Source: a plasmid. From it: 64,000 bases of DNA. The DNA is taken from the sequence record NZ_CP014128.2; one strand, 5' to 3'. Positions within the stretch are counted from its first letter, which is position 1; each line of letters opens with the position of its first letter. The position numbers and the translations under genes were made by a program. This document shows, one piece after another, positions 28,163-50,500 of the stretch. The notes under the pieces were generated by a model. The model did no database searches. It worked only from the letters and a program-made list of their open reading frames with translations, and was not told the DNA's origin.

Positions 28163-28193
28163 AAGGCCGGGCTCCCCCGGCCTTGCTGTTTTA
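28163..28193. terminator. Terminator hairpin between convergent operons
   Basis: aaggccgggctcccccggcctt followed by gctgtttta. Confidence 0.6.
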
Positions 28194-29408: not shown

Positions 29409-30864
29409 GATCTTCTCCTGTTGCAGGTTGTTCATCAATGTCCTGTCGGGTCGGTTCAAACCGGATAATCAACAGGAAAATAATCGGAATAAGGGCGGCG
29501 AGAGAGACGATCCAGAACATGTTGGTGCCATAACGGACCTGCAGAATGGGCAGGATAAATAGCGCCAGTGCACTGCCAATGCCAGAGAGCGAGCGACTGA
29601 AGCCAACACCGGTCGCACGAATGTGGGTCGGATAAGAGAGCGCCGGATAGATCATCAACTGCGCGCCGGGGCCGAACCCTTCGGCAAACAGCCAGAGTCC
29701 CAGCATCAGCACGGCAAACACCACGCCGGCAGTGGCCTGTGGATGACCGATCAGCGCCAGTGAGATCAGCGCGATAAACTGCAGGGCAAAACCCGCAATC
29801 GCCACATGCCTGGAAGAGAACTTCCATGCCAGTCGCATCCCCAGCAGGCCGCCGGTAAAGGCGAACAGCGCGTTCAGCCCCAGTGAGGCGGAGATGGTTT
29901 CAAACACGCCCGCGCCCAGGAACTGCGCCAGGATAGAGGGCAGGAAGAAAGCAATGGCGGTGTACTCAAATGCGATACAGACGTTCATTACTGCGCTGAC
30001 GATCGTGCGTTCGAGGTAAGGCTTCTGAAACAGCACGCGGAAACTCACTTTCGGGGCCGCTTTCACGGTTTCGGTTTTTTCGGGCTGCTCTTCATGCGCA
30101 ATAATGCCGTAGGAGTCGCGCAGGATACGAACTGCACCGCTCAGGTCTCCCTGATTGGCGGCCCACAGCGGTGACTCATTCATGAACTTGCTGCGCACCG
30201 CGATAATCAACAGAGCCGGTACCGCGCCAAACAGCAGCGAGGCGCGCCATAACCAGTCGATGTGTTCAGCTGGCAGCAGGAAATAGAGCGCAAAAATAAT
30301 AAAGAAGCAGGCAGATGACGCGGCATACCACATCGGGCACCAGGCCGCGAGGCGCGACGCTTTATTGCCTTTGCCGGAGAATTTAGAGAACTCCGCCAGG
30401 TAGGCCATGGCAACCGGCAGATCGATCCCGACCCCGACCCCCATCAGAAAACGCGCGCCAATCAATACCCAGACGTTGGGCGCCAGACCGGCAGCTATCG
30501 CAGAGACCACGAAGAACAGCATGTCCGCCATAAACACCGAGTAGCGGCCATATTTGTCGGTGAGCCAGCCGCCGACCAGATTGCCGACGATGGTGCCGAT
30601 CATAATTGAAGAGGTGACCAGTCCGGTCAGCACCGGGGTTAAGCCAAACTCTTTCACCACATCGTCAATACCATAGGAGAGCGTGGTGAGATCGTAGGCG
30701 TCAAGAAATACACCGCCCAGCGCCAGGAACACAATCCAGCGGGCGTAGCTGTTTTTCTCCGTATTACTGTTGATTAGCCGGGCCACATCACTCACCGAAC
30801 GAACCGGCGTGGAGTGAGGCGGCGAGGCGGTCAGGGTGTTGTCAATCTCTAATGTACTCATCAT
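29401..30864 (-). CDS. MFS transporter (12 TM, sugar-porter/metabolite:H+ symporter-like)
   Basis: Twelve hydrophobic segments, the MFS motif GxLxDKYGRYS after TM2, and a GAGGA RBS. It is co-oriented with and immediately upstream of SfnB-like copy 3. Confidence 0.8.
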   Translation of the reverse strand: MMSTLEIDNTLTASPPHSTPVRSVSDVARLINSNTEKNSYARWIVFLALGGVFLDAYDLTTLSYGIDDVVKEFGLTPVLTGLVTSSIMIGTIVGNLVGGWLTDKYGRYSVFMADMLFFVVSAIAAGLAPNVWVLIGARFLMGVGVGIDLPVAMAYLAEFSKFSGKGNKASRLAAWCPMWYAASSACFFIIFALYFLLPAEHIDWLWRASLLFGAVPALLIIAVRSKFMNESPLWAANQGDLSGAVRILRDSYGIIAHEEQPEKTETVKAAPKVSFRVLFQKPYLERTIVSAVMNVCIAFEYTAIAFFLPSILAQFLGAGVFETISASLGLNALFAFTGGLLGMRLAWKFSSRHVAIAGFALQFIALISLALIGHPQATAGVVFAVLMLGLWLFAEGFGPGAQLMIYPALSYPTHIRATGVGFSRSLSGIGSALALFILPILQVRYGTNMFWIVSLAALIPIIFLLIIRFEPTRQDIDEQPATGEDHV

Positions 30865-30977
30865 ATCCTCGTTATTATATTCAGCAGGTAACGAGGTTTT
30901 TATAGGCATTCACGGCTCAGTAAACAACCAACAAATATGGATAACGATTCTATATAATTCAATAAGTTAATCTCATT

Positions 30978-31012
30978 TTTCAGACATGGAAAAGACCGGA
31001 TGAATGCAGTGA
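30978..31012 (-). terminator. Hairpin terminator downstream of the minus-strand transporter operon
   Basis: accggatgaa-tcactgc-attcatccggt followed by a cttttcc T-rich tract on the minus strand. Confidence 0.45.
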
Positions 31013-31045
31013 TTCATCCGGTTTGCGCCCACCTGGGCCTGTTTA

Positions 31046-31921
31046 TTATTCTGCGGAAACCGGCACCAGTACGCCTTTCACCAGCGGATCCTGCGTTTCT
31101 TTCAGCCACTGCTGTAGCCGGGGGTCGGCGAAGGCTTTTTTTAGCCGGACAATATTGTCATCTGCCAGCCAGGGCGTGCCTATAACCAGTTGAGAGGCAA
31201 AGGTGCGCGGGGCTGGCGGGAATAAAATCCCTTTTTCGCGCGGTACTTTTCCGGCATCAAACTGTGAAACATAACCGATGGCTGCATCAACCGAATTCAG
31301 CGCGCGCGGCATGGTCAACAGATCCAGCTCTTTGAAGTTGAAACCATGAGGATTGTCTTTGATGTCTTTGAGTTTTGCGGTACGCGGTTCAATCGCCGGA
31401 TCGAGACCAATCAGGCCGATACGCTGCAGCAGCCATAAGGCCTGCCCCTGGTTAGCACCATCATTAGGCACCACAATTTCCGCACCCTGTGGCAGTTTAC
31501 TGATGGCACGGTAGCGATCTGAGTAGATGCCAAACGCCCACTGGAACAGCGGCAGGGTGGCTGTCAGCGGAAATTTGTTCGCCTCCACCACCTGTTTCAG
31601 CCACCACTGATGCTGATAGACGGTGGCGGCATACTTACCCTCCGCCACCGCGCGGTCGGCCTGCACCGGATCCTGCAATCCTTCGGCCTCCAGTTTAATG
31701 CCGTAGTCGGGCGCTATATGTTGCGCCACAAACTGAATCAGCCGCTCTTCACCGGCCATCGCCGGTTCAAAATGGACTTTCAGCGTGGTGCCAAAAGTGA
31801 CGGTGCGGGCCTTGTGCGCAACCTGATACCAGACCGCAGCGGCAATCAACACCACTACCACCCCAGCCACTACCCACGGCCATTTTTTCTTCTGTCTAAT
31901 TTCAAAGTCGTGATGCGTCAT
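31046..31921 (-). CDS. MetQ/NlpA-family substrate-binding protein (membrane-anchored), second transporter set
   Basis: N-terminal TM anchor, then a periplasmic-binding fold related to MetQ. Confidence 0.75.
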   Translation of the reverse strand: MTHHDFEIRQKKKWPWVVAGVVVVLIAAAVWYQVAHKARTVTFGTTLKVHFEPAMAGEERLIQFVAQHIAPDYGIKLEAEGLQDPVQADRAVAEGKYAATVYQHQWWLKQVVEANKFPLTATLPLFQWAFGIYSDRYRAISKLPQGAEIVVPNDGANQGQALWLLQRIGLIGLDPAIEPRTAKLKDIKDNPHGFNFKELDLLTMPRALNSVDAAIGYVSQFDAGKVPREKGILFPPAPRTFASQLVIGTPWLADDNIVRLKKAFADPRLQQWLKETQDPLVKGVLVPVSAE

Positions 31922-32622
31922 GTTGAATGTTTTCCCTGATAAGGTTGCAGCGCCGAAATCAAACGGTCGCCTAAAAACTGAACCAGCTGAATAGTGACGA
32001 TCAGCACAATAATGGTGGCCACCATGATGTGATTATCAAAACGCTGATAGCCGTAAACCACGGCCAGATAGCCAATTCCCCCGGCTCCGATCGTTCCGGC
32101 GATAGCGGAATACTCAATCATCGAAATAAGATTCAGCACAATGGCTGCCACAATTGTGGGCAGGGCTTCACTGATCTGGGCGCGGGTAATGATTTGCCAC
32201 GTGGAGCCGCCGGAGACCAGGCCCACGGCGGTGACATCAGCGGGCAGTTCACGCAACGCATTGCTGACCAGTCGGGCAAAAAAGGGCGTGCCGGCGATGA
32301 TCATTGGCACCACGGCTGCGGGGATGCCAATGGTGGTGCCGGTCAGCCAGAAGGTAAAAGGGATAATGGCCGCCATCAGCACCAGAAAAGGGAGTGAACG
32401 GCCCATGTTGATAATCCAGCCCAGAATCTGGTGCAGCGTTCTGTGCGGAAACAGCCCCTGCCGCGAGGTGTTAAACAGCACCACCCCCAGCAGGCCACCG
32501 AGTGTCACCACAAACAGCATCACCACAGCCACCATCAGCCAGGTTTCGCCGTAGGCGGGCAGCATCAGCGCCGGGATTTGGTTCCACGGCGTATCCTGAC
32601 TCAGTACGTCAGCAGGTTTCAT
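31918..32622 (-). CDS. MetI-like ABC permease, second set
   Basis: Polytopic, with an EAA-loop-like region. The stop and start overlap the neighbouring genes. Confidence 0.85.
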   Translation of the reverse strand: MKPADVLSQDTPWNQIPALMLPAYGETWLMVAVVMLFVVTLGGLLGVVLFNTSRQGLFPHRTLHQILGWIINMGRSLPFLVLMAAIIPFTFWLTGTTIGIPAAVVPMIIAGTPFFARLVSNALRELPADVTAVGLVSGGSTWQIITRAQISEALPTIVAAIVLNLISMIEYSAIAGTIGAGGIGYLAVVYGYQRFDNHIMVATIIVLIVTIQLVQFLGDRLISALQPYQGKHST

Positions 32623-33659
32623 ACCACCTCCTGCAGGGCCGCACGTTGTTCCAGAATCTCAGCATGAATGCCATAGTGCTGTAGCAGCTCCGTCACCTGC
32701 CGGGGCGTGACGCCAGAATGGGAAAAACGAATGGCCACCCGCATCCGTCCCGCCAGCGCATCGCCAACCTGCTCAACGTGGGCCGCCAGCAGATCCACCT
32801 GCACGGCAAACTGCTGCGTCAGACGGCTGATCCAGTCGATGGCTATCGGGCGGTCGCCGTAGGTGAGTTGCATCAGCAGATCGCCCGACCCAGCGAGCGG
32901 CTGGAGTGGGAACAGCTGCTGACCCAGCGACGAATCGGGCGTGGCCAGCAGCTGACGTAAATGGCCCTGTTGCACCAGCCTGCCGTCTGCAATCTGCGCG
33001 ACGGCGTCGGCTGCGCGCCGCACCACATCCATTTCGTGGGTAATAAAGATGATTGATAGCCCAAACTGATCGCGCAGGGTTTTCAGTAACGTCAGAATGG
33101 CGCGGGTGGCATCCGGATCAAGCCCGGACGTGGCCTCGTCAGCCAGCAACACCGAGGGCTTAAGCGCCAGCGCCCGGGCGATACCCACACGCTGGCGCTG
33201 GCCGCCGGAGAGCTGAGACGGATAAAAGGCCGCCTTGTCACTCAGACCGACGCTCTCCAGTAGCGTGCCAACATGGCGTTTGATCTCCCCGGGCACCACA
33301 CCCAGCCACTCCAGCGGCAGCGCCACATTTTCCCAGGCGGTTTTGCGCTGCAACAGCGCGGATGACTGAAACACCGTGCCTATCGCCCGACGTTTGTGAC
33401 GTAAAGTCTCACCCGTGTAATGTGACAGATCCTCGCCATTGACCCGGATGCTTCCCGATGTTGGTCGCTCCAGCAGACTGATGCACTTTGCCAGCGTCGA
33501 TTTTCCCGCGCCGCTGGGCCCGACGACCGCCGTTATTGAACCGGCAGGAACGCTGAGCGTAATATCTTTCAGCACCTCAACCTGACGATTCTGTGGCCCG
33601 GCGTACGTTTTACTTAGCCCCGTAATCTCAATCATGAGGCCTCCACGCTTTCTGTCCAC
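32619..33659 (-). CDS. MetN-like ABC ATPase, second set
   Basis: Walker A GPSGAGKST, signature LSGGQRQRVGIARAL, Walker B LLADEATSGLD, and a C-terminal NIL-like domain. Confidence 0.85.
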   Translation of the reverse strand: MDRKRGGLMIEITGLSKTYAGPQNRQVEVLKDITLSVPAGSITAVVGPSGAGKSTLAKCISLLERPTSGSIRVNGEDLSHYTGETLRHKRRAIGTVFQSSALLQRKTAWENVALPLEWLGVVPGEIKRHVGTLLESVGLSDKAAFYPSQLSGGQRQRVGIARALALKPSVLLADEATSGLDPDATRAILTLLKTLRDQFGLSIIFITHEMDVVRRAADAVAQIADGRLVQQGHLRQLLATPDSSLGQQLFPLQPLAGSGDLLMQLTYGDRPIAIDWISRLTQQFAVQVDLLAAHVEQVGDALAGRMRVAIRFSHSGVTPRQVTELLQHYGIHAEILEQRAALQEVV

Positions 33660-35041
33660 TGCTCCGCGCTGGCGATACGGCGATAACCAGCCCCCGGATG
33701 CGGCAACGCCAGCCGCGGTCCCTGTCCGAACAACTTTTCACGCAGCGTGCCGGGTTGATAGTCCTGCTTGTAAACGCCGCGCTTTTGCAGTTCCGGCACC
33801 AGCAGGTCCACCACGTCAGTGAAAGTTTCATGCGTCACGGCGTAGGCGAGGTTAAACCCGTCAACGTCAGTTTCTTCAACCCAGCTCTGCAGTTCATCCG
33901 CTACGGTTTCGGCGCTGCCCACCAGCAACGGGCCAAAACCGCCAATGCCCACCCAGTCAGCCAGACCCTGCACCGTCCACTGACGATTGGGATCGGCGGT
34001 GGAGAAGGTCTCAACCGCCGACTGAATGGCGTTGGTATGCAAATGCTTTAATACCTGTTCCGGCTGATACTGCCCGAAATCGATACCGGTCCAGCCCGAG
34101 ATGAGCGCCAGTGCCCCTTCGTAACTGACATAGCTTTTGTACTCCTGCCATCTGGCCTGCGCCGCAAGGTCAGTTTCACCCACAATCACCGTCTGCAGAT
34201 TGAAGATCAGTATGGATCGCGGGTCACGTCCAGCCTCAGCGGCCCTGCGACGAATATCTGCCACAGTTTTCTTCAGCAGTACTTTCGACGGTGCCGCGAC
34301 AAATACGCATTCAGCATGTTCCGCCGCAAACGCCTTGCCGCGGCTGGAGGCACCGGCCTGGTATAGCACTGGCGTGCGCTGCGGTGACGGCTCGCAAAGA
34401 TGAATGCCCGGCACCTGGAAAAACGTTCCCTGATGGTTAATCGGATGGATTTTATTAGGGTCGCTGAATATATGACGTTCACGATCGCGCAGGACAGCGT
34501 CGTCTTCCCAGCTTCCTTCAAGCAGCTTATAGATAACCTGCAGATACTCATCGGCGTAGTCGTAGCGCGCATCGTGGTCGGTCTGGGTCTGCTGGCCAAT
34601 ATTGCGTGCGCCACTTTCCAGGTAGGAGGTGACAATATTCCAGCCAATACGGCCTTTGGTCAGATGATCCAGGGTCGAGATCCGTCGCGCAAACGGGTAG
34701 GGGTGTTCAAACGACAGCGAGGCGGTCAGGCCAAAGCCCAGGTGTTCCGTCACCATGGCCATCGGCGTGATTAACGCCAGCGGATCGTTTACCGGCACCT
34801 GTGTAGCCTGACGGATGGCGGCATGGTTATTACCGTTGAGCACGTCATAGACACCCAGCACGTCAGCAATAAACAGCCCATCAAACTTACCGCGCTCCAG
34901 CAGGCGCGCTAAATCGGTCCAGTACGCCAGATCTTTATACTGCCATGAGCGGTCGCGGGGATGCGCCCACAAACCGGGTGACTGATGACCAACACAGTTC
35001 ATATCGAAAGCATTCAGGCGAATTTCACGTTGCGATGACAT
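33632..35041 (-). CDS. LLM-class FMNH2-dependent monooxygenase, NtaA/DszA family, copy 2 (469 aa from the ATG at 35041)
   Basis: LNAFDMNCVGHQSPGLWAHPRDRS...DLARLLERGKFDGLFIADVLGV, paralogous to the 24227 gene. There is an AGGAG RBS before the internal ATG, so the longer ORF-track start is unlikely. Confidence 0.75.
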   Translation of the reverse strand: MSSQREIRLNAFDMNCVGHQSPGLWAHPRDRSWQYKDLAYWTDLARLLERGKFDGLFIADVLGVYDVLNGNNHAAIRQATQVPVNDPLALITPMAMVTEHLGFGLTASLSFEHPYPFARRISTLDHLTKGRIGWNIVTSYLESGARNIGQQTQTDHDARYDYADEYLQVIYKLLEGSWEDDAVLRDRERHIFSDPNKIHPINHQGTFFQVPGIHLCEPSPQRTPVLYQAGASSRGKAFAAEHAECVFVAAPSKVLLKKTVADIRRRAAEAGRDPRSILIFNLQTVIVGETDLAAQARWQEYKSYVSYEGALALISGWTGIDFGQYQPEQVLKHLHTNAIQSAVETFSTADPNRQWTVQGLADWVGIGGFGPLLVGSAETVADELQSWVEETDVDGFNLAYAVTHETFTDVVDLLVPELQKRGVYKQDYQPGTLREKLFGQGPRLALPHPGAGYRRIASAEQWTESVEAS

Positions 35042-35108
35042 AGCGGCTCCTGAGCGGATGCGGCAATCGCTTGCCGCCCACCTTTTAATGTGTGTTTTAA
35101 GGAATGAT

Positions 35109-36521
35109 TTAGCAGGTGAGTGAGCCGGGACATCGCTCGCTGAGGAGCAGCGGCGGGGCGGCAAGCAGTTGCCGTGCGACGGCCTCTGCATGTTCCGCCA
35201 CCTGCGGTAATCCCATGAGTTCACCAAAGCGGCCCCGCGCGGCAGGCCCGGCGACATAGAGTCCGGGATTCGCTTCACCGTTCACATTCAGCGTCTGTGA
35301 TAGCGCATTCACCTGGATCCCCAGCGCCAGCGGGTCAGGCTGGATAACGCCATCGCCATGGAGCTGACGCAGCAGCGCATTGCTGTTAAGCAGCGCGTTG
35401 TGTGCAGGGCCGGTGGTGACAATGACTTTCTCCACCTCCAGCATGTGCGATTGCACACCGCGCAGGCGCAACGTCAGCCGGAGCGTTGCGCCATCTGATT
35501 CAGCGGCGATAAGACGCGCCGCCAGCAGAGTCAGCTGACCGCTGGTCTGCTGCTGGCTGAGAACCTGACTCACCTGCGGCGCAATCCGGTAGCGATGAAC
35601 ATCCCACCAGGGGCGCAGATGATGCAGAAAGCGCTGCTGCTCGTGCAGCGACAGACTCTGCCAGATGTGCTGACCGTTACGACGAATATCATCCAGCACC
35701 AGTTGCCAGGGCAGATTCAGCGCCGCCGCCTGTTTAACGTCCTGTCGCACCCGCTGTAGCCAGCCGCGCGCGGTGGCGGGTTGCGGCTGACTGTAATCCA
35801 GGGCGTAAGTCTCATTGCTGCCACTCAGGTTGGCACGCGGCAGCTGGCCACGACGGGAGAAGACGGTAATCTTTCCACGGTGCTGCTGGCGATGCAGCGA
35901 CGCCACCACATCGGACATGGTCAGCCCTGAACCGATAATCGCCACCCGATCGTCAGAGGCGACCTGTGTCAGCGCGTCGCGCTGCCAGGGATTGGCAATC
36001 AAAGCCGGATGGCCCTGTAGCGGCCTCAGCAGAGCAGGCAGATCCGGCGGGGGATGACTGATCGCCAGCACTACCTGATCGGCATGAATCTGCTGCCCGG
36101 AGGCCGTGGTCACCACGCCATTCTTAAAGGCAACCGCACTGTCACGCAGATGACTCAGTTTCACCGGTGAGTACTGCTGCTGATGAACAAACTGCGCATT
36201 GACCCAACGTCCGAACTCACCGCGTTGCGGGTAGACGTTGCCGTCATGCCACAGCGCTTCCGGATCGGTCCTGAAGCCGGCAGAGGCGCGATAGTCGCGA
36301 TCGAAAACACCCTCTTCATCACCGGCAAGCTGCATTCTGCCGGCCGGTACATTAATGCGGTGGGCCGGATCGGTGGTGCCGTATGCCACGCCCTGCGCCA
36401 GCTGTGCGCGAGGTTCAATCACCGTCACCTGCAATCCCGCCTGGCCAGCGCGGGCCAGATGGATCGCCAGCGCGGTGCCGGTGAACCCACCGCCGATAAT
36501 GACAATCTGCTGTTGTGACAT
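35109..36521 (-). CDS. FAD/NAD(P)-binding oxidoreductase (YdhS-like family)
   Basis: N-terminal IVIIGGGFTGTALA dinucleotide-binding motif and a second GSG motif mid-protein (RVAIIGSGLTMSD). Confidence 0.6.
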   Translation of the reverse strand: MSQQQIVIIGGGFTGTALAIHLARAGQAGLQVTVIEPRAQLAQGVAYGTTDPAHRINVPAGRMQLAGDEEGVFDRDYRASAGFRTDPEALWHDGNVYPQRGEFGRWVNAQFVHQQQYSPVKLSHLRDSAVAFKNGVVTTASGQQIHADQVVLAISHPPPDLPALLRPLQGHPALIANPWQRDALTQVASDDRVAIIGSGLTMSDVVASLHRQQHRGKITVFSRRGQLPRANLSGSNETYALDYSQPQPATARGWLQRVRQDVKQAAALNLPWQLVLDDIRRNGQHIWQSLSLHEQQRFLHHLRPWWDVHRYRIAPQVSQVLSQQQTSGQLTLLAARLIAAESDGATLRLTLRLRGVQSHMLEVEKVIVTTGPAHNALLNSNALLRQLHGDGVIQPDPLALGIQVNALSQTLNVNGEANPGLYVAGPAARGRFGELMGLPQVAEHAEAVARQLLAAPPLLLSERCPGSLTC

Positions 36522-36547
36522 AAGCGAGCCTTTTTTCTGTTAACTGA

Positions 36548-37720
36548 CTAGCTGGCGCTGGCCTGTTTAGCCGGGCGACGGTCGCCGCCGATGGTTTCAC
36601 CAAACGGACCGGTGTTGACGCTGCGCTGTTTCTTTTCGGCGTTGGCGGCCAGCGGCAACAACGGCATGACCAGCTCCGCAAAGCGGTGTGCCTCTTCAAG
36701 GTGCGGATAGCCGGAGAAGATAAAGTTCTCAATGCCCAGTGCCTGATACTCCCGGATGCGATCGGCAACCTGCTGCGGATTGCCGACCAGCGCAGTTCCT
36801 GCGCCGCCGCGCACCAGGCCGACGCCTGCCCAGAGATTGGGACCAATACGCAGGCTCTCCCGCGACCCCTGATGCAGGGCACTCATCCGCGCCTGACCGG
36901 CGGAGTCCATGCGGGCAAAGATCTTCTGCGCGGCGGCGATAGTTTCTTCATCCAGATGAGAAATCAGTCGATCGGCCGCCGCCCAGGCTTCCTCTTCCGT
37001 TTCACGTACAATGACATGCAAGCGGATGCCATAAGAGAGCGTGCGGCCATTCTCCTGCGCCCGCTGACGAACCACCGCCAGCTTCTCCGCGACCTGTTCA
37101 ACCGGCTCGCCCCACGTCAGATAGGTGTCGATCTGATTCGCCGCAACGTCGATAGCAGCCTCAGATGAGCCACCGAAATAGAGTGGCGGACCGTCTTCCT
37201 GCACCGGCGGGAAGAGGATCTCGGCACCTTCCACGCGAATATGCTCGCCTTCAAAGTCTACCTTCTCGCCTTTCAGCAGACGGGAGTAGACCTCAAGAAA
37301 CTCTTTGGTCACCTGATAGCGTTCTTCATGACTCAGGAAGATGCCGTCACCTTTGTTCTCCACCGGATCACCCCCCGTGACCACGTTGATCAGCAACCGG
37401 CCGCCGGAGAGACGGTCCAGCGTCGCCGCCATCCGCGCCGCCAGGCTGGGCGGTTGCAGGCCGGGACGCACGGCCACTAAATAGCGCAGCTTTTTGGTGA
37501 TCGGTGCCAGTGCCGAGGCGACCAGCCATGAATCCTCGCAGCTTTTACCGGTCGGGATTAACACACCGTAGTAGCCCAGATTATCTGCCGCCAGCGCAAC
37601 CTGCTGTAAATAGGGTAAATCGACTGCTCTCCCGCCTTCGGTGGTACCCAGATAGCGCCCGTCGCCGTGGGTAGGCAGAAACCAGAAGAGGTTGAGGTTT
37701 TCCTGTGTCGCATGACTCAT
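36548..37720 (-). CDS. ssuD: Alkanesulfonate monooxygenase, FMNH2-dependent
   Basis: Nearly collinear with E. coli SsuD. Examples: [81 protein letters not shown], and GYPHLEEA. Confidence 0.9.
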
Positions 37721-37789
37721 TAGCAGATTCCTTTATAACGATATTAAAATTTATCACATAGGGTTAATCCCTTTGGTTATATAGCCTCT

Positions 37790-37806
37790 AGCAGGATGCG
37801 TGCCAG
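37790..37806 (-). promoter_or_regulatory. Candidate sigma54 (-24/-12) promoter for the ssuD operon
   Basis: The minus strand reads cTGGCACgcatcCTGCt (GG-N10-GC spacing, TGGCAC exact), about 70 bp upstream of the ssuD start. A sigma54 activator gene is divergently adjacent. Confidence 0.45.
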
Positions 37807-37994
37807 TGCGATGAAATATTTTTATTATTAAAATTCAGTGATTTATAGTTTTGCTGGCAGACGCTAATCTGCTGCATTCGCAACAGGCATAGTTGTATCC
37901 TGCTGCATTGGCAACAATCTGGCTTGGTTCGCCTCTCGTTTCGGCGTCTGCGGCGCGGTATGGTCATGGTTTTCCCGTTCACCCGGTAAATGAG

Positions 37995-39884
37995 ATGCAG
38001 ATATCCAGCCCTGAGTTAATTGACCCCGCATCGCGCGCCTTCAAAAGCGTGCTGGATCAGCTCGCGCCCACCGATGCGACGGTACTGATCATCGGTGAAA
38101 CCGGCACCGGCAAAGAGGTAATGGCGCGCTATCTGCATCATCACAGTGCCCGCAGCCGGCAGCCTTTTCTGGCGGTTAACTGCGGCGCACTTACCGAGAG
38201 CCTGGCGGAGTCGGAGCTGTTTGGTCATGAGAAAGGCGCCTTTACCGGCGCACAGGACAGGCATCGTGGCTGGTTTGAGGCGGCAGAGGGCGGCACGCTG
38301 CTGCTGGATGAGATTGGTGAGCTAAGCCCGTCGCTGCAGGTGAAGCTGCTACGCGTGCTGCAGGAGCGTGAAATTACCCGCGTCGGATCGTCCAGGCCGG
38401 TAAAAGTCAATGTGCGGGTCATTGCCGCGACCAACCGGGATCTGGCGGTGGCTATCCGTGAACGGCGATTCCGGGAAGACCTCTATTACCGGCTGAATGT
38501 GGCCAGCGTCACACTGCCGCCGCTGCGCCAGCGCTGCGAAGATATTCCGGTGCTGGCCAGTCACTTCCTGCAACTCTATGCGCGCCGTCTTGGTCGTCCT
38601 CAGCTGCGCCTCAGTGATGAAGCCATGACGGTGTTGATGAACTACAGCTGGCCGGGCAACATCCGTGAACTGGAGAACACGCTGCACAATGCCGTGCTGC
38701 TCAGCAAAAACTCACTGGTCACGCCACAGCAGCTGCGGCTAAGCCCTCTTGCGGGGAGCGACCTGCCGCTGGGAGAGGAGGCGCTGGATCAGTTTTTACG
38801 CCAGCAGATGCAGCAGAGTGATACGCCGCTCTATCCCCGGGTAATTGCTGCGCTGGTGAAAAATGCGCTGGAACTCACGCAGGGTAATCAGTTACAGGCG
38901 GCCGCGCTGCTGGGTATCAGCCGACATACATTGCGCACACAGCTGGGGCATCTGGGGGTGATTAAACCGCGCCGCGGTTCAGTGCGTCAGCGCGATGTTT
39001 CTTTTGGTCAGCAGCCTGAGCAGGAGCGGGAACTGCGTATTGGTTATCAGAAATTTGGCAACCTTGGCATTCTGAAAGCGCGCCAGTCGCTGGAACAGCA
39101 GCTGGCCGGGCAGGGTGTCAGCGTCATGTGGAGTGAATTTCCTGCGGGTCCCCAGCTTCTGCATGCACTGAGCAATAAGGAGATTGATTTCGGGACCACT
39201 GGTGAAGTTCCCCCCTTGTTTGCCCAGGCCAGCAACAGTCCGATGGTCTATGTCGCCTGGGAACCAGCCGCTCCGCAAAGCGTGGCGCTGCTGGTGCCGA
39301 ACAGCAGCCCGGTTAAGCAGATTGGCGATCTCAGGGGCAAACGTATTGCCGTGAATCGCGGCTCCAACGTTCACTATCTGTTGTTGCAGATTCTGGATGA
39401 GGCGGGTTTAGCGCTGGATGATGTGCGCATTGTCTATGCCCCGCCTAAATATCCTTTGACGCCCAGCGATCTCAACGCGGTAGATGCCTGGATGATGTGG
39501 GATCCGTTACTCAGCGATGCGGAGAACAGCGGAGAGTTCAGGGTGATTGCAGATGGCACCGGCCGGGTCAATAACCATCAGTTTTACCTGGCTGAGCGCG
39601 GATTTGCGACGCACTCTGGCGATCTGTTACAGGTTTTGCTTAGCGCGCTGGAGCAGACCGGCCGCTACATTGATGCGCATCGGGCTGAAGCTGCCGGGCT
39701 GCTCTCCACGGAACTCGGCATCTCTGCCACCTCACTGATGCACGCCTTAGCCCGGCGCAGCCATCAGACCCAGAGAATGAACCTGGCCATCATCCGGGAA
39801 CAGCAAACCATCGCGGACCGCTTCTATGCGCTGGGGTTATTCAGTCGCGCCATTCGCGTACGCGAGTCGGTCTGGCATCCATAG
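37995..39884 (+). CDS. Sigma54-dependent transcriptional activator (AAA+ plus HTH) fused to a C-terminal SsuA/NMT1-like solute-binding domain
   Basis: The EBP core is present: GETGTGKE Walker A, the GAFTGA sigma54-contact motif, an arginine finger region, and a Fis-type HTH (AAALLGISRHTLRTQL). The protein then continues for roughly 300 aa clearly paralogous to the adjacent SsuA (RIGYQKFGNLGILKAR...WSEFPAGPQLLHAL...DLRGKRIAVNRGSNVHYLL). There is no N-terminal regulatory domain and no signal peptide. Confidence 0.8.
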   Translation: MQISSPELIDPASRAFKSVLDQLAPTDATVLIIGETGTGKEVMARYLHHHSARSRQPFLAVNCGALTESLAESELFGHEKGAFTGAQDRHRGWFEAAEGGTLLLDEIGELSPSLQVKLLRVLQEREITRVGSSRPVKVNVRVIAATNRDLAVAIRERRFREDLYYRLNVASVTLPPLRQRCEDIPVLASHFLQLYARRLGRPQLRLSDEAMTVLMNYSWPGNIRELENTLHNAVLLSKNSLVTPQQLRLSPLAGSDLPLGEEALDQFLRQQMQQSDTPLYPRVIAALVKNALELTQGNQLQAAALLGISRHTLRTQLGHLGVIKPRRGSVRQRDVSFGQQPEQERELRIGYQKFGNLGILKARQSLEQQLAGQGVSVMWSEFPAGPQLLHALSNKEIDFGTTGEVPPLFAQASNSPMVYVAWEPAAPQSVALLVPNSSPVKQIGDLRGKRIAVNRGSNVHYLLLQILDEAGLALDDVRIVYAPPKYPLTPSDLNAVDAWMMWDPLLSDAENSGEFRVIADGTGRVNNHQFYLAERGFATHSGDLLQVLLSALEQTGRYIDAHRAEAAGLLSTELGISATSLMHALARRSHQTQRMNLAIIREQQTIADRFYALGLFSRAIRVRESVWHP

Positions 39885-39979: not shown

Positions 39980-40927
39980 ATGAAAAAAGTTTTACTTCGC
40001 GCTTTGATTATTGCCGCCCAGGCGGCTTTCGCGTTCAACACCCAGGCAGCAGAGAAACCCGAGACAGTGAACATCGGTTTTCAGAAAGCCAATATCTTTG
40101 CGCTGCTGAAGTATCGCGGCACGCTGGATCAGGAATTTAAAAAGCAGGGTATTGCGGTGCACTGGATTGAGTTCCCGGCCGGGCCGCAGATGCTGGAAGG
40201 CTTAAACATCGGCAGTATCGATCTGGCCGCTACCGGCGACGCGCCACCGACGTTCGCGCAGGCAGCGCAGGCCGATCTGGTTTATCTGGGACACTCGCCA
40301 GCTAACCCTAAAACCGAAGCGATTGTGGTGCCCGCTGACTCCCCGATTAAAAGCGTGGCGGATCTTAAAGGCAAGCGTGTGGCGCTGAATAAAGGCTCTG
40401 ACGTTAATTATCTGCTGGTCACCGCGCTGGAGCAGGCAGGGCTGACCTATAAAGATATTACGCCGGTCTATCTGCCACCTGCGGATGCGCGTGCCGCTTT
40501 CCAGCGCGGCGCGGTGGATGCCTGGGTCATCTGGGATCCCTACTACGCCGAAGTGGAAACTAATGCCCACGCGCGGCTGATTAAAAATGCCGAAGGGCTG
40601 GTGCCGCACTACACCTTCTATCTTGCCAGCCGTAAGTTCGCGGAGCGCTATCCCCACATCGCTTCTGAGGTGGTGGATGAGCTGGGTTCACTGAGTCAGT
40701 GGGCTAATCAAAATCAGGAAGAGGCCGCAAAAATCATGTCCACCTCAACCGGCCTGCCGCAGCCGATCTGGCAGCGCGCGCTGGCAAGGATGCCGTTTGG
40801 CGCAGAGCGGATGACGCCAGAAGTCTTCACCCAGCAGCAGGCGCTGGCAGATACCTTTACCCGGATTGGTCTGTTGCCGGTGAAAGTCGATATCCGCAGC
40901 GCAACCTGGTCGCAGGATATGAAATAA
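39980..40927 (+). CDS. ssuA: Aliphatic sulfonate ABC transporter periplasmic binding protein
   Basis: Signal peptide plus NIGFQKANIFALLKYRGTLDQEFKKQGIAVHWIEFPAGPQMLEGLNIGSIDLAATGDAPP, which is SsuA-like. There is no ssuBC downstream. Confidence 0.85.
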   Translation: MKKVLLRALIIAAQAAFAFNTQAAEKPETVNIGFQKANIFALLKYRGTLDQEFKKQGIAVHWIEFPAGPQMLEGLNIGSIDLAATGDAPPTFAQAAQADLVYLGHSPANPKTEAIVVPADSPIKSVADLKGKRVALNKGSDVNYLLVTALEQAGLTYKDITPVYLPPADARAAFQRGAVDAWVIWDPYYAEVETNAHARLIKNAEGLVPHYTFYLASRKFAERYPHIASEVVDELGSLSQWANQNQEEAAKIMSTSTGLPQPIWQRALARMPFGAERMTPEVFTQQQALADTFTRIGLLPVKVDIRSATWSQDMK

Positions 40928-40970: not shown

Positions 40971-41276
40971 TTAGTTTGTGCTCCGCAACTGATCGGGCTT
41001 ATAGCGGCTATTCAGCACGCTTAAATCCACTTTTTTTGCTGCGCGGTCAAGGTCATAGGCCGCCTGTATGCGTAGCCACATTTCAGGTGTACTGCCGATC
41101 ACAGCAGATAATCTAATGGCCATTTCTGGGGTGACAGCAGTAGTTCCGGAAACCATTCTGGAAACAGTCGAAGGTGCAATTGCCAAAGCACGAGCCAGTT
41201 CCCTGATCCCGATACCGAGGTCTTCCATGATATCGGAAATAACTTCACCAGCGTGCGGGGGGTTATGCATTTTCAT
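40971..41276 (-). CDS. higA: HigA-family antitoxin (XRE HTH)
   Basis: HTH IRELARALAIAPSTVSRMVSG. It sits downstream of and overlaps (ATGA) a RelE/ParE-fold toxin gene, giving the inverted HigBA order. Confidence 0.8.
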   Translation of the reverse strand: MKMHNPPHAGEVISDIMEDLGIGIRELARALAIAPSTVSRMVSGTTAVTPEMAIRLSAVIGSTPEMWLRIQAAYDLDRAAKKVDLSVLNSRYKPDQLRSTN

Positions 41277-41554
41277 CAGTGATAATCCTCATAATTCAGA
41301 ATCCAGGCATCCCCATCTTTAAACTCAAAAGTAATGCGCCAGTTCCCTGTGACCGTGATCGACCAGATACCTTGTCTGTCACCTTTAAGTGGATGCAGCC
41401 TGTAGCCGCTGAGGTTCATATCCTCAATATTTTCAGCAAGGTCGATAACCCTTAAGCGAGTACGTAACCGTTTTTCATGGGCTGCATTAATTTTTCTGGT
41501 TGAGCCGGTGGTGTAAAACTCTTCAAGCCCCTTGTGTAGCCAGGTTTTGATCAT
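41276..41554 (-). CDS. higB: HigB-type (RelE/ParE superfamily) toxin, 92 aa
   Basis: MIKTWLHKGLEEFY...LSGYRLHPLKGDRQGIWSITVTGNWRITFEF, the typical HigB/plasmid-maintenance killer pattern. It is upstream of its antitoxin. Confidence 0.75.
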   Translation of the reverse strand: MIKTWLHKGLEEFYTTGSTRKINAAHEKRLRTRLRVIDLAENIEDMNLSGYRLHPLKGDRQGIWSITVTGNWRITFEFKDGDAWILNYEDYH

Positions 41555-42114
41555 CCGTGTTTCCCAGTGTTGCCTGATGTGGAACATCATAGCATGTGTT
41601 GCATCTAATGCAACAGAAGGGTTAACAGACAGCAATTTCTTAAAGAAGATGAGCGATACAGATATGACACTGATTTAACAGACTTTACGGGTTGACACTC
41701 TCTCTTCAATACTCACATCTACGCATCCGTTCCTCATTGATATCCCGGCCACATCAGGCAACGACTGCGGAGCTTGAAGGCATGGCTGTAAGAATGGCCG
41801 CCTCATTGATGGATAAAAACAGCTAAGCGAACTCAAAAAACTTTGCGCGCTTCAGCGCAGGAAAAAGCGTGTGGCAGGACGGCGGGGCTGTTACCTCGGC
41901 CGGCAGAGAGAAAACCGGACTTTAGCGAAGCGGTGCCGATATTTCAAAGAGTTACACCATATTTATTTCACCAGACGGCTTCATAAGCTGTTCTACACTT
42001 ACATCTTCAGTCGCGCCATTTGACTGAAAAAGCCGCATCACGAAGAGGGTGGCGACAGCAATGCATCACGCAGTCGCCACCCTCAAAACTGATCATGCAA
42101 GAGAGGTGAACACT

Positions 42115-43248
42115 ATGAAAGCAGTTGTCTATAACGGACCATTTGACGTTTCAGTCAAAGATGTCCCGGATCCGAAAATCGTTCGTCCCACCGATGTGAT
42201 TGTCCGTATTACCACCACCAATATCTGCGGTTCTGACTTACATATGTACGAAGGGCGAACCAGCTTTGAGCAGGGTCGCATCTTCGGCCATGAGAATCTG
42301 GGCCAGGTTGTTGAAATTGGTAGCGGTGTAGAGCGGATTAAAGTCGGTGATTATGTCTGCCTGCCCTTTAATGTCGGCTGCGGCTTCTGTGAAAATTGCG
42401 AGAAAGGGTTAACCGGTTACTGTCTGACGGCCAATCCGGGCACGGCAGGTGCCGCCTATGGCTTTGCGGAGATGGGCGAATGGGAGGGTGGACAGGCGGA
42501 ATTACTTCGTGTTCCCTTCGCTGACTTTAACTGTCTGGTTTTGCCTCCGGATGCGGCAGAAAAGGAGGAAGACTACGTTATGCTGTCCGACATCTTCCCT
42601 ACCGGCTGGCATGCCACTGAGCTGGCAGGCTTGCGCCCTGGCGAGAGTGTTGCCATTTACGGCGCTGGCCCGGTCGGCTTAATGGCGGCGCATTCGGCCA
42701 TGATTAAAGGCGCATCACAGGTCTTTGTGGTCGATACCCATCCGGACAGACTGGCGTTAGCCGAACAGCTTGGCGCAGTGGCGATCAATGGCGTGGGCGA
42801 TGACGCGGTCAATAAAATCCTCGACCTCACCGATGGGCGCGGCACGGATTGCGGTTGCGAATGCGTGGGCTACCAATGCTGCAATAAACATGGCCACGAA
42901 GATAACTCCGCCACGCTGAACAGCCTTGTTGCATCAACTAAAGCCACGGGCGGGATTGGTACGGTAGGCGTTTTTGTTCCTCAGGATCCCGGCGGGGCAA
43001 CCGAACTGGCTAAAGAGGGCAAAGTGCCGTTCGATTTCGGTACGTTCTGGTTTAAAGGTCAGTCAATGAAGACCGGCCAGTGTAACGTGAAAGCCTACAA
43101 CCGCCAGCTCGCAAGGCTTATCCATCAGGGCCGAGCCAATCCGGCGCAGATCATCTCGCATCGTCTTGCACTGGCAGACGCTCCCGAAGGCTATAAGCAT
43201 TTTGACGATCGGGATAATGGCTGGACAAAAGTCATTCTGAAGCCCTGA
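42115..43248 (+). CDS. fdhA: Glutathione-independent formaldehyde dehydrogenase (Zn-ADH family)
   Basis: VSVKDVPDPKI...ITTTNICGSDLHMYEGRT...GHENLGQVVE...NVGCGFCENCEKGLTGYCL, close to Pseudomonas FdhA. There is a GAGAGG RBS. Confidence 0.85.
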   Translation: MKAVVYNGPFDVSVKDVPDPKIVRPTDVIVRITTTNICGSDLHMYEGRTSFEQGRIFGHENLGQVVEIGSGVERIKVGDYVCLPFNVGCGFCENCEKGLTGYCLTANPGTAGAAYGFAEMGEWEGGQAELLRVPFADFNCLVLPPDAAEKEEDYVMLSDIFPTGWHATELAGLRPGESVAIYGAGPVGLMAAHSAMIKGASQVFVVDTHPDRLALAEQLGAVAINGVGDDAVNKILDLTDGRGTDCGCECVGYQCCNKHGHEDNSATLNSLVASTKATGGIGTVGVFVPQDPGGATELAKEGKVPFDFGTFWFKGQSMKTGQCNVKAYNRQLARLIHQGRANPAQIISHRLALADAPEGYKHFDDRDNGWTKVILKP

Positions 43249-44236: not shown

Positions 44237-44670
44237 TCAGCACGGATAAATCCACTGTTTTAGCCGCCCGGTCAAGGTCATAGGCAGCCTGGATGCGAAG
44301 CCACATCTCTGGGGTACTGCCAAAACAGCGGCTAGTCTGATAGCCATCTCAGGCGTTACAGCGGTGATGCCAGAAACCATTCTTGAGGCTGTCGAGGGTG
44401 CGATAGCCAAAGCACGCGCTAACTCCCTGATTCCGATATCAAGATCTTCCATAATATCGGAGATAATTTCACCTGCGTGTGGGGGTTCTGCATTTTCATC
44501 AGTAATCATCCTCATAGTTTAGAATCCAGGCATCACCTTCTTTAAATTCAAAAGTAATGCGCCAGTTTCCCGTAACGGTATCGACCAGATACCTTGCCTG
44601 TCACCTTTCAGGGGATGCAATCTGTAGCGACTGAGGTTCATATCCTCAATTTTTTCAGCCAGATCTTATT
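44237..44670 (-). pseudogene. Degenerate second copy of the higBA module: frameshifted higA plus a 3-prime fragment of higB
   Basis: Nucleotide similarity to 40971-41440. The HigA-like ORF diverges out of frame after ...MAIRLAAV. Upstream there is only about 150 bp matching the higB 3-prime end. Confidence 0.6.
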
Positions 44671-47511: not shown

Positions 47512-50500
47512 TCAGCTTTTCATTTCAAACCCTTCTTTTCTCAGCTCAGAGAGAGCCGATGCCACTTCCGGATTGGCTTTAGCAATGTCACCCTCGAGAG
47601 TGAAGCGCCGGGGTGTGTCCTGGTCCTGACCGTATTTGAAGTTAATGGTGCCGATATTGCGTTCCATACTGACGCCCGCGCTGTTGCTGGCGCCCAGTAA
47701 GAGCGTCGGCGTGTTGAATCCTTCACTTTTGGTAACATTCTGGCTGACGCTGATTGATCGGATGCGCAGGTTATTACGATCCTGGAACAGCAGCCCCAGT
47801 TCCTCGCGCCCTACTTTACCGTCCAGAATGGCTTTTTCCGTCTGATCGCGCAGGCCATCCTTCAGCTCCATCGAGACGCTGGCGCTACTGAACGGCGTGT
47901 TTTGCAACTGTTTGATCAACCCCTTCAGTACCGGATCGTTATCTATCATCGCGCTCAGACGGGTAGCATTAGTGGGTGGCAGGGCCGCGTTAAAATGCTG
48001 CTTCAGCATATCCACAATACCGTTCTCATCCAGCCGGGACAGATTGCTGTAAGAAGTACTGTGCCTGGCCGAGCCCAACCCCATCACGTTGGTTTCAGCA
48101 GCCTGCTGCTGCAGTACCAGCTGTTCCAGGTTGCGTACCGCCTCATATCTGTCGTCACCGATGACCTTATTGCGGGTAAAATGGCGGTGTAACTCGTTCA
48201 GTTGCTTTGAGGGTTCAGGGTTTTCCTGTTTTTTCAGGTCGGCCAGCAGTTTGGTGCTCTCGCTGTCCTTGAAATGTTTGCCTAGCGTGGAGGTCAGCTC
48301 GCTGATATCGTTGCTGGTTACCGGATCGGCCTGCTTCATCTCCACGCTGATCCTTTGGGTGGTGCGGTTATCCATCGCCAGCGACACCGCCACGTTAGTG
48401 GAGGTGAAGGCCGGAAAAGTCCCGACGGACTTAGCCGGCTGTTTGGTGGCATTGTCGGTGACCTTACCATCATGAGTAAAACCGTGGGCGACACCGACAC
48501 TGAAGGTAAGGTTGGCCCCGACGTTAGCCGAGTTAAGGAAAGTCGCACGGTTGTCACTGGCCGCGACCGTGCTGCCAAACTCGCCTTTTTGCGTACTGCG
48601 TTCGCGTCTGGCGGTCATCAGGTTAGCCGAACCGCTTACCCCGGTGGAAATACGGGCGGTTACACCGTCAGGTTTTGCGCCGTCGTTGGTGATGTTAATC
48701 CCGGCACGCAAATCGAAGGCCGCTGAGGTATCGACGTTGAACACCAGTTTGGTGCCCTGCTTCATCTGATGTTCAATCCCTTTTTTCATCAGCTCGGTCG
48801 GCGTCAGCGTGCCGTGCGTCAGGCCATGCAGAAAATCAGGCAGTTCATCTTCGGTCAGTTTGAAGTTAAGACTGTTTTGCAGCGTCCCCTGGACGTTACT
48901 GCTGATGCTGCCGCCGATACGAAAATCCGGGCTGATCTTATGTTTTTTGCTCAGCCAGTCGCTGGCATTTTCGGCGGTGTTTTTTTTGCCGGTCATGTAG
49001 GGCATTAAATCGTGGCCGGTAGCAACAGAGATGGTGCCGGTTGCCCCCCCGTCACGACCAAAGGTGACGTCCAGTCCACCGCTGGTACGGCCAAAGCTCA
49101 GGTTATAAGCACGGTCGAGGGTGATCCCCGCGCCGGGCACGATCGGCACCGGGATTTTGTTTAGCGTCGGTACAAACGCGGTGCTGAGGCCACCGCCGTA
49201 GGCACGGCTGAAACTGATGCTTTCGCCGCCGTCCAGCGACAACAGCGTGTCTTTTAATTTTTTCTCCAACTGGGCGTTGCCCTGGGTGTCCAGCACGGTG
49301 CGGGTGGTCAGGTTGACGCCGTGGTGCTCTTTCTTAAAGGCGTTGATAAAGGCTTTCACCGCATCGTAATTGGCCTCCAGCGGTGCGTTATGGCTGAAGC
49401 CCATGTCGGTAAACTGCTTCACCGGGTTAGCGCCATACTGCTTTTCGCGCAGGGTATCGAACTGCTGACGCAACTGCTTGATCTGGTCGGGATCGGGCTG
49501 ATGTCCTGATACCAGTGCCGCCTTATCCGCCAGCTGATGCAGATCGCCGATGGTAACGGTATCCAGAATCAGCCGCGATTTGGTGAGGGATGTTTCGTCA
49601 TTGGGATCGCGCTGACGCCCCATCGGCACGTCACCTTTCTGGTGACTCATATTTACCCCGGCTTTGACGAAGTGTCTGAGCAGCGCTTGCAGCTTACTTT
49701 GTGGTGACGGCGCGGCAGAGCTGACCGCTTTTTCTAACGCTTTACTGAGGTCACGACCTGAGCGGTTGACGTTAAAGCTTTGAATGACCGCCTTACTGGC
49801 TGAAGGTCTGAACTCTTCGTTAATCTGACCGTTGCTTTTCAATACCCCCTGATGCTGACCCAGTTCAGTGGCCGAGCGGACGGCATTCTGTTCCAACTCT
49901 TCACGGAACCGCTTCATATCATTCAGCAACGCCGCACCGTGTTCACCTAAATCCAGCACTTCCATTTTGCTGTGCAAATCCATTTGTGTGCCGCTGTTAC
50001 GCACGTTGTGCGCTTCCAGCTGCTTAATCAGTGCGCCCTGCATTTCGTAAACCGAGCCCAGACCACGCCGTCCCTGCCAGTTATGCTGTATGTTGTAGGC
50101 CGCATTCTTGATCGGACGCGGCGTCGCCATCGTCGGATTGAAAATATAGGCGCGCACCCGATCGGTAAATTTACTGGTGATTTTGCGGTTTTCCATCCCG
50201 GTCTGCCCGCCCACCTGCGCAGTAAGCTGCATGTTCACGCCGGTTCCGGGGATCAGGCGGCCTTTGAGGCCCTGATTTAAACGGGCAAATACCTGTTCCG
50301 AACCACGCTGGCCTACCTCCAACGGCCCAGACTCTGGCGCGGTATGCGCATGCCACTCCCCTTCTCTCAACTTATGCAGGGTGCCGTCAGCCATCGTGGC
50401 GACCGGCTGGTTGTCATGGTCCATCTCCAGCCGTTGCAGTTCACTTTCGCTGTGCGGCATCGCCAGTTTTTGCCAGTTACCGCCAGCCTCCCCGCTCTGC

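Follow-up and report, generated by a model that had tools for sequence, protein, structure and literature searches.

A plasmid-encoded candidate sigma-54 activator carries an SsuA-like solute-binding domain behind its DNA-binding domain and is predicted to act on a divergent ssuD operon

The stretch analyzed here, called the window, comprises 64,000 nucleotides of plasmid DNA from sequence record NZ_CP014128.2. It contains a gene for a putative sigma-54-dependent transcriptional activator of the bacterial enhancer-binding protein (EBP) type, hereafter the regulator, in which an AAA+ ATPase domain and a helix-turn-helix (HTH) are followed in the same chain by a domain of the SsuA family of solute-binding proteins. 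The gene is divergent from ssuD, which encodes an FMNH2-dependent alkanesulfonate monooxygenase. The regulator and its parts are located as follows.

37995 to 39884, plus strand: regulator gene, 629 amino acids (aa; 630 codons with the stop), encoding AAA+, lid, HTH_8, linker and SsuA-like domain in this order
38031 to 38738, plus strand: sigma-54 AAA+ domain and lid, residues 13-248
38853 to 38936, plus strand: Fis-type HTH (HTH_8, PF02954), residues 287-314, 30.9 bits against a cut-off of 22
38949 to 39029, plus strand: linker, residues ~319-345, variable and predicted to be disordered
39030 to 39881, plus strand: type II solute-binding domain of the SsuA family, residues 346-629, without a signal peptide

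The open reading frame (ORF) from 37893 to 39884 on the plus strand was uninterrupted by stop or frameshift. Its first in-frame ATG, at 37995, is preceded by a purine-rich stretch and was invariant across the intergenic regions of eight aligned loci, namely the window and orthologous loci fetched from Erwinia amylovora, Serratia marcescens, Serratia liquefaciens, Rouxiella, Tatumella, Paramixta and Pantoea agglomerans. Because this ATG is conserved and the orthologues are 628-639 aa long, the regulator was assigned 629 aa. An earlier sequence-only reading of this DNA had given 630 aa, which holds as a codon count including the stop; the range it had given, 37790 to 39884, ends where the gene ends and starts at the promoter described below, not at the start of the gene. 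The copy on plasmid pPag1, 97% identical, is annotated in RefSeq as a sigma-54-dependent Fis family transcriptional regulator (WP_013356551.1).

All three domains that the sequence-only reading had proposed for a search, Sigma54_activat, HTH_8 and NMT1/SsuA, were matched on the regulator. In the Pfam search, Sigma54_activat (PF00158) covered residues 13-172 with 232 bits and profile positions 8-167 of 168, followed by AAA_lid_14 (PF25601) at residues 178-248 with 85 bits. With the AAA+ domain beginning at residue 13 behind a conserved ATG, the protein starts directly with this domain and has no N-terminal sensor, as had been claimed. The GAFTGA motif noted earlier was likewise found intact at residues 81-86, together with the Walker A motif GETGTGKE at residue 34 and the Walker B motif LLLDEI at residue 102. 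In an alignment of 50 family sequences (42-93% identical to the window protein), A82, F83, T84, G85 and A86 of the GAFTGA loop were invariant and G81 nearly so, and N298, Q299, G307, R310 and R314 of the HTH were invariant. The closest solved structure to the AAA+/HTH module was ZraR (1ojl, E=1e-85). Judged by its AAA+ domain, GAFTGA motif and HTH, the regulator passes as a bacterial EBP at the sequence level.

The linker behind the HTH was far less constrained. Its 27 residues showed 33-48% identity between genera and a variable alignment length, and the ratio of nonsynonymous to synonymous substitution rates (dN/dS) was ~0.7 in the closest pair. An AlphaFold2 model built from the 50-sequence alignment had a mean predicted local distance difference test (pLDDT) score of 84 and a predicted template modelling (pTM) score of 0.48; the binding domain was modelled at a pLDDT of ~90, and residues 325-342 of the linker, at 31-48, were predicted to be disordered.

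The C-terminal part of the regulator was matched by Pfam NMT1 at residues 374-500 and by the NCBIfam model SsuA_fam (TIGR01728) at residues 347-627, covering profile positions 1-285 of 290. The latter was a narrow pass (168 bits against a cut-off of 163.5), and the cut-off of PRK11553 was missed (235 against 299 bits). The C-terminal 284 aa aligned end to end with the mature SsuA proteins of Escherichia coli (2X26) and Xanthomonas citri (3E4R), E=3.6e-55. In crystal structures of X. citri SsuA with MOPS, MES and HEPES, the sulfonate is held by Gln36, by the NH groups of Gly68, Gly86 and Ser141 and by the Ser141 hydroxyl, and Trp185 packs against the alkyl part of the ligand (PMC3839906). Gln36, Gly68, Gly86, Ser141 and Trp185 corresponded to Q352, G385, G403, N458 and W502 of the regulator in the HMMER alignment; Q352, G385, G403 and W502 were invariant across the 50 family sequences, and N458 nearly so. 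By this alignment the sulfonate pocket is conserved with one family-specific change, Ser to Asn.

Compared with the neighboring gene for a periplasmic SsuA (39980 to 40927), the C-terminus of the regulator was 38% identical over 289 aa (BLASTP, E=5e-73), and the alignment began at SsuA residue 22, near the end of its apparent signal peptide. The claim that some 300 aa behind the HTH are paralogous to SsuA and lack a signal peptide was thereby borne out, the domain beginning where mature SsuA begins. The fused domain does not appear to be a recent copy of the neighboring ssuA, because the identity is only 38%, most orthologous loci lack the neighbor and the fusion occurs widely. The binding and AAA+ domains had dN/dS values of 0.048 and 0.058, respectively, in the closest pair (dS ~0.6), and the binding domain had values of 0.06-0.12 in more distant pairs. 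On these estimates, purifying selection on the binding domain is as strong as on the ATPase. No ssuBC genes lie adjacent to the regulator, and its binding domain follows the HTH inside one chain; lacking both a secretion signal and an SsuBC partner, the domain is, as predicted from sequence, not a transporter subunit.

The sequence-only reading had named two genes separated by a stop codon in relatives as the finding that would speak against a genuine fusion. All of the best 120 database matches (120/120) were instead single proteins of ~574-696 aa with both the Sigma54_activat and the NMT1 domain; these were 70-94% identical and came from Pantoea, Serratia, Erwinia, Rouxiella, Tatumella, Gibbsiella, Paramixta and Kalamiella. 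When representatives at 50% identity were searched exhaustively, ~10 further clusters with an SsuA-like domain after ATPase and HTH in one chain were obtained, and a profile made from them brought up full-length proteins of Sorangium/Polyangiaceae, Azospirillum, Methylocystaceae, a Rhodospirillales metagenome-assembled genome, Neomegalonema, Brenneria and Chimaeribacter; Methylocystis members were added through cluster look-ups. Fused in the distant clades as well, the family spans several proteobacterial orders and Myxococcota in these searches, and by the same comparisons an artefactual fusion is excluded. No counterpart of the regulator was found in E. coli. The nearest unfused relatives were short proteins of 330-400 aa with ~50-54% identity, which carry generic names only.

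One distant candidate for the fusion was rejected. A contig from Entotheonellaceae (L010) matched query residues 20-457, yet this match turned out to span two genes parted by stop codons, the first encoding a GAF-type NifA-like EBP and the second a separate PhnD-like binding protein, and they belong to a different family. A Sorangium member (L088, CP150327.1) was fused, with 707 aa; its gene is not beside ssuD and follows, in the same orientation, a gene for an SsuE-like FMN reductase.

NCBI and JGI give a large fraction of the fused regulators (~630-740 aa) the name 'aliphatic sulfonate ABC transporter substrate-binding protein'; the other name in use is 'sigma-54-dependent Fis family transcriptional regulator'. 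The transporter-subunit name is wrong, because the protein is cytoplasmic and DNA-binding; the error is systematic and stems from the C-terminal domain.

The intergenic region between the regulator and ssuD carries the following predicted elements, in which UAS denotes an upstream activating sequence and IHF the integration host factor.

37790 to 37805, minus strand: predicted -24/-12 sigma-54 promoter of the ssuD operon, TGGCACGCATCCTGCT, GG-N10-GC, with a predicted start site near 37779
37870 to 37885, no strand assigned: putative proximal enhancer (UAS) palindrome, TGCTGCATTCGCAACA, centered at about -98
37901 to 37916, no strand assigned: putative distal enhancer (UAS) palindrome, TGCTGCATTGGCAACA, centered at about -129 and 31 bp beyond the proximal palindrome
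37833 to 37845, plus strand: IHF-like candidate site, ATTCAGTGATTTA, with 2 mismatches to WATCAANNNNTTR, between enhancer and promoter

The -24/-12 element, also written TGGCACGcatcCTGCT, had been proposed from the sequence as a GG-N10-GC element divergently preceding ssuD, and it was recovered at that place and found to be conserved in position. TGGCACGCATCCTGCT has one mismatch to TGGCAC-N5-TTGCW. The bare pattern was not above chance in the window (49 matches at no more than 2 mismatches, against 49 expected from shuffles), and the significance of the element therefore lies in its conserved position in orthologous loci, not in the rarity of the pattern. In every enterobacterial locus the regulator was divergent from an SsuD homologue of 386-394 aa over a spacer of 272-280 bp. 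Mean column identity of the intergenic alignment was 67%, and neither the GC in the -12 box nor the TGCCA in the -24 box varied among the eight aligned spacers. The strict pattern was present in 7/8 loci, the C of the -12 box lying always 70-71 nt before the ssuD ATG; in Paramixta the GG-N10-GC spacing was kept and the -12 box reads TCGC. A distant locus from a metagenome, probably alphaproteobacterial (L089), in which the regulator is 50% identical, was added to the comparison, and here too a GG-N10-GC element, TGGCACGCCGCGTGC, stood before a divergent pair of luciferase-like monooxygenase and NAD_binding_9 genes. In all nine loci aligned or inspected, the predicted ssuD -24/-12 element keeps its position. 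On the minus strand, no sigma-70 promoter was seen for ssuD; the sole sigma-70-like match lies on the plus strand, overlaps the -24 box and carries little weight.

An inverted pair, TATAAC...GTTATA, was observed at 37734-37739 and 37776-37781 in the leader and start-site region of ssuD and was invariant in the eight aligned loci. An RNA hairpin formed by this pair was considered and was unsupported (minimum free energy of -8.1 kcal/mol, z of -0.09). The pair may be the DNA site of a second regulator.

Further upstream of the promoter, two 16-bp palindromes with the consensus TGCTGCA-NN-TGCAGCA were found 31-32 bp apart in the eight-locus alignment, equal to three helical turns, with their centers 72-73 and 103-105 bp upstream of the -24 GG. 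A pair at 30-32 bp spacing was present in loci L082-L085, L087, L089 and L090, and that of the distant L089 consists of TGCTGCcttcGCAGCA and TGCTGCaaagGCAGCA, 30 bp apart. As a negative control, 80 unrelated EBP loci were taken from a whole-protein scan of genome contigs in which they were matched via FGHEKGAF (0/80 were orthologues); the palindrome pattern occurred 4 times among them and never as a pair. In the window the pattern matched 7 times against 1.7 expected, and the two intergenic palindromes were two of the three matches with one mismatch and the sole adjacent pair.

The IHF-like site was located 26-27 nt from TGCCA in 8/8 enterobacterial loci with 0-2 mismatches, and it is perfect in S. 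marcescens; it is kept as a candidate only, because the region is AT-rich. Palindromes, IHF-like site and -24/-12 element together form what is, by prediction, the full classical layout of a sigma-54 promoter. Of these three, the sequence-only reading had named only the last. Cooperation of an EBP with an enhancer and IHF is an established general model (review PMC7175178).

On the regulator side of the spacer, an invariant CTCG was observed at the -35 position together with an invariant TAnnnT (TATGGT, 37959-37964) ~30 nt before the regulator ATG, the whole stretch being 37936-37964. These boxes are likely the sigma-70 promoter of the regulator itself with a non-consensus -35, which would fit dependence on an activator, perhaps CysB or Cbl. 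The palindromes lie ~50-100 bp upstream of the TAnnnT -10 box, and on account of this position the regulator is probably autoregulated.

The genes of the predicted target operon and a gene downstream of the regulator are the following.

36548 to 37720, minus strand: ssuD, FMNH2-dependent alkanesulfonate monooxygenase and first gene of the operon, TIGR03565 equivalog, 619 bits against a cut-off of 518
35109 to 36521, minus strand: FAD/NAD(P)-binding protein (NAD_binding_9), PF13454, 95 bits
33632 to 35041, minus strand: NtaA/DmoA-family FMN-dependent monooxygenase, TIGR03860, 569 bits, likely start at 35041
31046 to 33659, minus strand: MetNIQ-like ABC importer, with ATPase at 32619-33659, permease at 31918-32622 and NlpA lipoprotein at 31046-31921 (Pfam)
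39980 to 40927, plus strand: periplasmic SsuA paralogue, orphan, PRK11553 at 326 bits against a cut-off of 299, its N-terminal stretch reading as a signal peptide

In L089 and in every enterobacterial locus, the regulator and an ssuD-type gene were oriented divergently. The NAD_binding_9 gene was the constant partner of ssuD in all eight orthologous loci, regulator, ssuD and NAD_binding_9 gene were linked in 8/9 loci, and no close solved structure was found for the NAD_binding_9 protein. The start of the NtaA/DmoA-family gene at 35041 was inferred from the beginning of the profile match and from a 469-aa orthologue. The MetNIQ-like importer is probably part of the ssuD transcription unit; such genes follow likewise in Tatumella, Paramixta and Rouxiella, and the pPag1 of strain C9-1 lacks them between the NtaA-like monooxygenase and the major facilitator superfamily (MFS) gene. 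Further downstream on the same strand lie this MFS transporter gene and a gene for a protein of the acyl-CoA-dehydrogenase fold, which is called only 'monooxygenase' in the RefSeq pPag1 copy.

The orphan SsuA gene lies downstream of the regulator and was present, among the loci compared, only in the window, Rouxiella and P. agglomerans; being confined to the loci of Pantoea and Rouxiella, it therefore counts as accessory, and the fused domain was not derived from it. No ssuBC genes were found near it. The GSD motif of the orphan SsuA places Asp opposite the sulfonate contact Ser141 of X. citri, and the protein may bind an atypical ligand.

The part of the window from 21789 to 37720 forms a ~16-kb organosulfur-scavenging island. 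Besides ssuD it contains two SfnB-family oxidoreductases, three luciferase-like monooxygenases, two MetNIQ-like importers, an MFS transporter and one more protein of the acyl-CoA-dehydrogenase fold; an oppositely oriented cluster at 21.8-28.2 kb holds the two SfnB-family genes, a luciferase-like monooxygenase and the second MetNIQ-like system. Where the other operons of the island begin, neither sigma-54 promoters nor enhancer palindromes were seen. The stretch at 36.5-41 kb shares 97% identity with the pPag1-type plasmids of Pantoea vagans, which measure 160-180 kb, and 88% with plasmids of P. agglomerans. In Serratia and Erwinia the regulator module was located on contigs of megabase scale and is taken to be chromosomal.

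Several features of the surrounding plasmid were observed in passing. Two minus-strand ORFs of 101 and 119 aa at 40971-41635 look like an antitoxin-toxin pair of the HigA/HigB type, by appearance only. A 92-aa ORF at 44237-44515, 3 kb on, is apparently a truncated, diverged second copy of the antitoxin-like ORF, and the two copies flank a zinc alcohol/formaldehyde dehydrogenase-like gene (42049-43248), an arrangement that suggests insertion or rearrangement. An ORF of 1872 aa on the minus strand (47512-53130) coincides with a strongly negative AT skew of -0.13 to -0.18. The GC content of the window is 0.39-0.44 at 10000-16000 and 20000-22000, compared with 0.52-0.60 elsewhere, which suggests foreign insertions in the plasmid.

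We read the regulator as a one-component, ligand-sensing EBP that would activate the plasmid-borne organosulfur-scavenging ssuD operon, and give this reading a probability of about 0.6. The sequence-only reading had likewise suggested that a co-opted transporter-binding domain senses a sulfonate-like ligand in the cytoplasm, and those of its parts that are open to a computational check were borne out. Dimers of the regulator would occupy both TGCTGC-N4-GCAGCA palindromes through the HTH. An imported alkanesulfonate, or a closely related organosulfur anion, would bind the C-terminal domain and close its flytrap, and closure would alter the contacts of the tethered domains with the AAA+ modules or with one another, either lifting an inhibition or favoring assembly of the ATPase ring. 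Looping assisted by IHF would then carry the ring to the sigma-54 holoenzyme at the -24/-12 element, where ATP hydrolysis would open the ssuD promoter. The transcribed operon would comprise ssuD and the genes for the FAD/NAD(P)-binding protein, the NtaA/DmoA monooxygenase and the MetNIQ-like importer.

A bolder version, in which the regulator represents a sixth architectural class of EBPs whose Venus-flytrap domain behind the HTH senses cytoplasmic sulfonate directly and gates the AAA+ ring from the 'wrong' end, is held tentatively, at slightly worse than even odds. If it is true, desulfonation in Erwiniaceae, Yersiniaceae, Azospirillum, Methylocystis and myxobacteria would be substrate-induced and sigma-54-dependent, unlike the CysB/Cbl paradigm.

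Several points weigh against the reading of the regulator as a sulfonate-responsive activator. Canonical ssu regulation follows sulfur status through CysB and Cbl, not the substrate. That a ligand binds, what it is, in which direction the regulator responds and that sigma-54 is required are all inferred from sequence comparison. As to the coupling mechanism, the AlphaFold2 monomer showed no confident packing of the binding domain on the ATPase (pTM 0.48). Because Ser141 is replaced by Asn across the fused family, the SsuA_fam model is passed narrowly and PRK11553 is failed, the ligand is possibly not a typical alkanesulfonate. In two distant fused members (P0139 and P0151) the GAFTGA motif is degenerate (KTAAPAA and HDTLTRSA), and in one of the two Walker A is changed as well, to GEPGTGKE; sigma-54 activation may have been lost in both, with HTH and binding domain retained. 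Near the Sorangium gene, the TGCTGC-N4-GCAGCA pair was absent. The enhancer motif is therefore not universal in the fused family, and the Sorangium clade probably has other targets and another operator.

Some of the same observations bear on an alternative that leaves the regulator a sigma-54 activator of the ssuD operon and gives its C-terminal domain a different role, that of responding to a negative signal or to some compound that is not an alkanesulfonate, such as sulfite, sulfate, a sulfinate, a sulfate ester, taurine or a methionine-derived sulfone, the ligand perhaps switching the regulator off. It would account for the nearly invariant Asn in place of X. citri Ser141, for the marginal SsuA_fam score and the missed PRK11553 cut-off, and for the presence in the operon of an NtaA/DmoA monooxygenase and a MetNIQ-like importer, the substrates of which are maybe not simple sulfonates; preferred sulfur sources, moreover, classically repress sulfur-scavenging genes. 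We consider it unlikely, with 4/5 contact positions, the Trp included, identical to the structurally characterized SsuA of X. citri and with a high-scoring true SsuD equivalog as the first gene of the operon.

Less probable again is a binding domain that has no ligand and serves only in oligomerization or stabilization, as the effector domain of LysR-type proteins does in oligomerization, the activator itself being constitutive, like PspF, and controlled only at the level of its synthesis, by CysB or Cbl for instance. SfnR has been proposed to be constitutively active and controlled in this manner. For EBPs that lack an N-terminal domain, control is usually exerted in trans or through the expression level (group 4, PMC7175178), and the TAnnnT box with its invariant non-consensus CTCG before the regulator gene would fit an activator-dependent promoter. 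The invariance of the ligand-contact residues over 42-93% identity, however, would be unexpected for a structural role, and purifying selection over the whole binding domain fits a ligand-binding and a structural role alike.

That loss of a stop codon, a frameshift or faulty assembly merged an SfnR-like activator gene with an ssuA, with the -24/-12 element present by chance, can be given hardly any credence, for although the bare -24/-12 pattern is no commoner in the window than in shuffles and the Entotheonellaceae contig has EBP and binding-protein genes adjacent yet separate, the in-frame fusion recurs at the same length in hundreds of independent assemblies from several orders and phyla, its binding domain has no signal peptide and begins at the start of mature SsuA, promoter, enhancer and spacing are all conserved, and the Entotheonellaceae pair (GAF-type NifA-like and PhnD-like) is a different family.

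On the ligand-sensing reading, a plasmid-borne island for organosulfur scavenging would be under substrate-specific control in plant-associated Pantoea, Erwinia and Serratia. The system would also provide a compact one-protein sulfonate biosensor, consisting of the regulator with a two-copy operator, TGCTGC-N4-GCAGCA, and a tight sigma-54 promoter.

Among the closest known systems are SfnR, SfnR1 and SfnR2 of Pseudomonas putida and Pseudomonas aeruginosa, sigma-54 activators of the sfn and msu genes for dimethylsulfone and methanesulfonate (papers cited in PMC8234197 and PMC13352529). No SfnR model was among the NCBIfam matches listed for the regulator. Like SfnR, the regulator has no N-terminal domain and is tied to sulfur scavenging by FMNH2-dependent monooxygenases, its control of the operon being predicted from sequence. 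SfnR lacks an N-terminal regulatory domain, ends after the HTH and depends on CysB for its expression; the regulator, in contrast, has ~310 further residues, made up of the linker and the SsuA-like domain, and its putative target is ssuD, not sfnFG.

The binding domain resembles periplasmic SsuA (E. coli 2X26; X. citri 3E4R, 3KSJ and 3KSX) in that the coordinating Gln, the two Gly and the Trp are identical. It differs from periplasmic SsuA in being cytoplasmic and part of a transcription factor, in having neither a signal peptide nor adjacent ssuBC, and in carrying Asn for Ser141.

In its arrangement of an N-terminal AAA+ domain followed by HTH_8, the regulator is like the group 4 EBPs PspF and HrpR/HrpS. 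Group 4 EBPs are controlled in trans by partners such as PspA and HrpV, whereas the regulator has a sensor-type domain in cis after the HTH. PspF, too, uses an enhancer and IHF (PMC7175178). A 2020 review divides EBPs into five architecture groups, with sensors at the N-terminal end and DNA-binding domains last (PMC7175178), and the regulator fits none of the five, in agreement with the sequence-only reading, which had called the placement of the sensory module unusual. No description of an EBP with an SsuA-like domain was found in the literature, several classic reviews lying outside the coverage, so that an earlier mention is possible. The fused family is already in the databases through automatic annotation, yet it is uncharacterized and architecturally unusual. 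Textbook EBPs have the sensor N-terminal to the ATPase, and the control mechanisms known so far, among them inhibition of ring assembly and phosphorylation-driven rearrangement of dimers, have all been described for that layout. A conserved sensor behind the HTH poses the concrete question of how a distal domain governs the AAA+ ring.

A parallel to the domain order is found among the LysR-type regulators, including CysB and Cbl of canonical ssu and tau control, in which an HTH is followed by a cytoplasmic effector domain resembling a type II periplasmic binding protein. Like them, the regulator has a DNA-binding domain, then a cytoplasmic binding-protein fold, and sulfur-scavenging genes as its predicted targets. 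LysR-type proteins, however, have a winged HTH, no AAA+ ATPase and an effector domain other than SsuA, and act at sigma-70 promoters, whereas the regulator combines a Fis-type HTH with an AAA+ domain.

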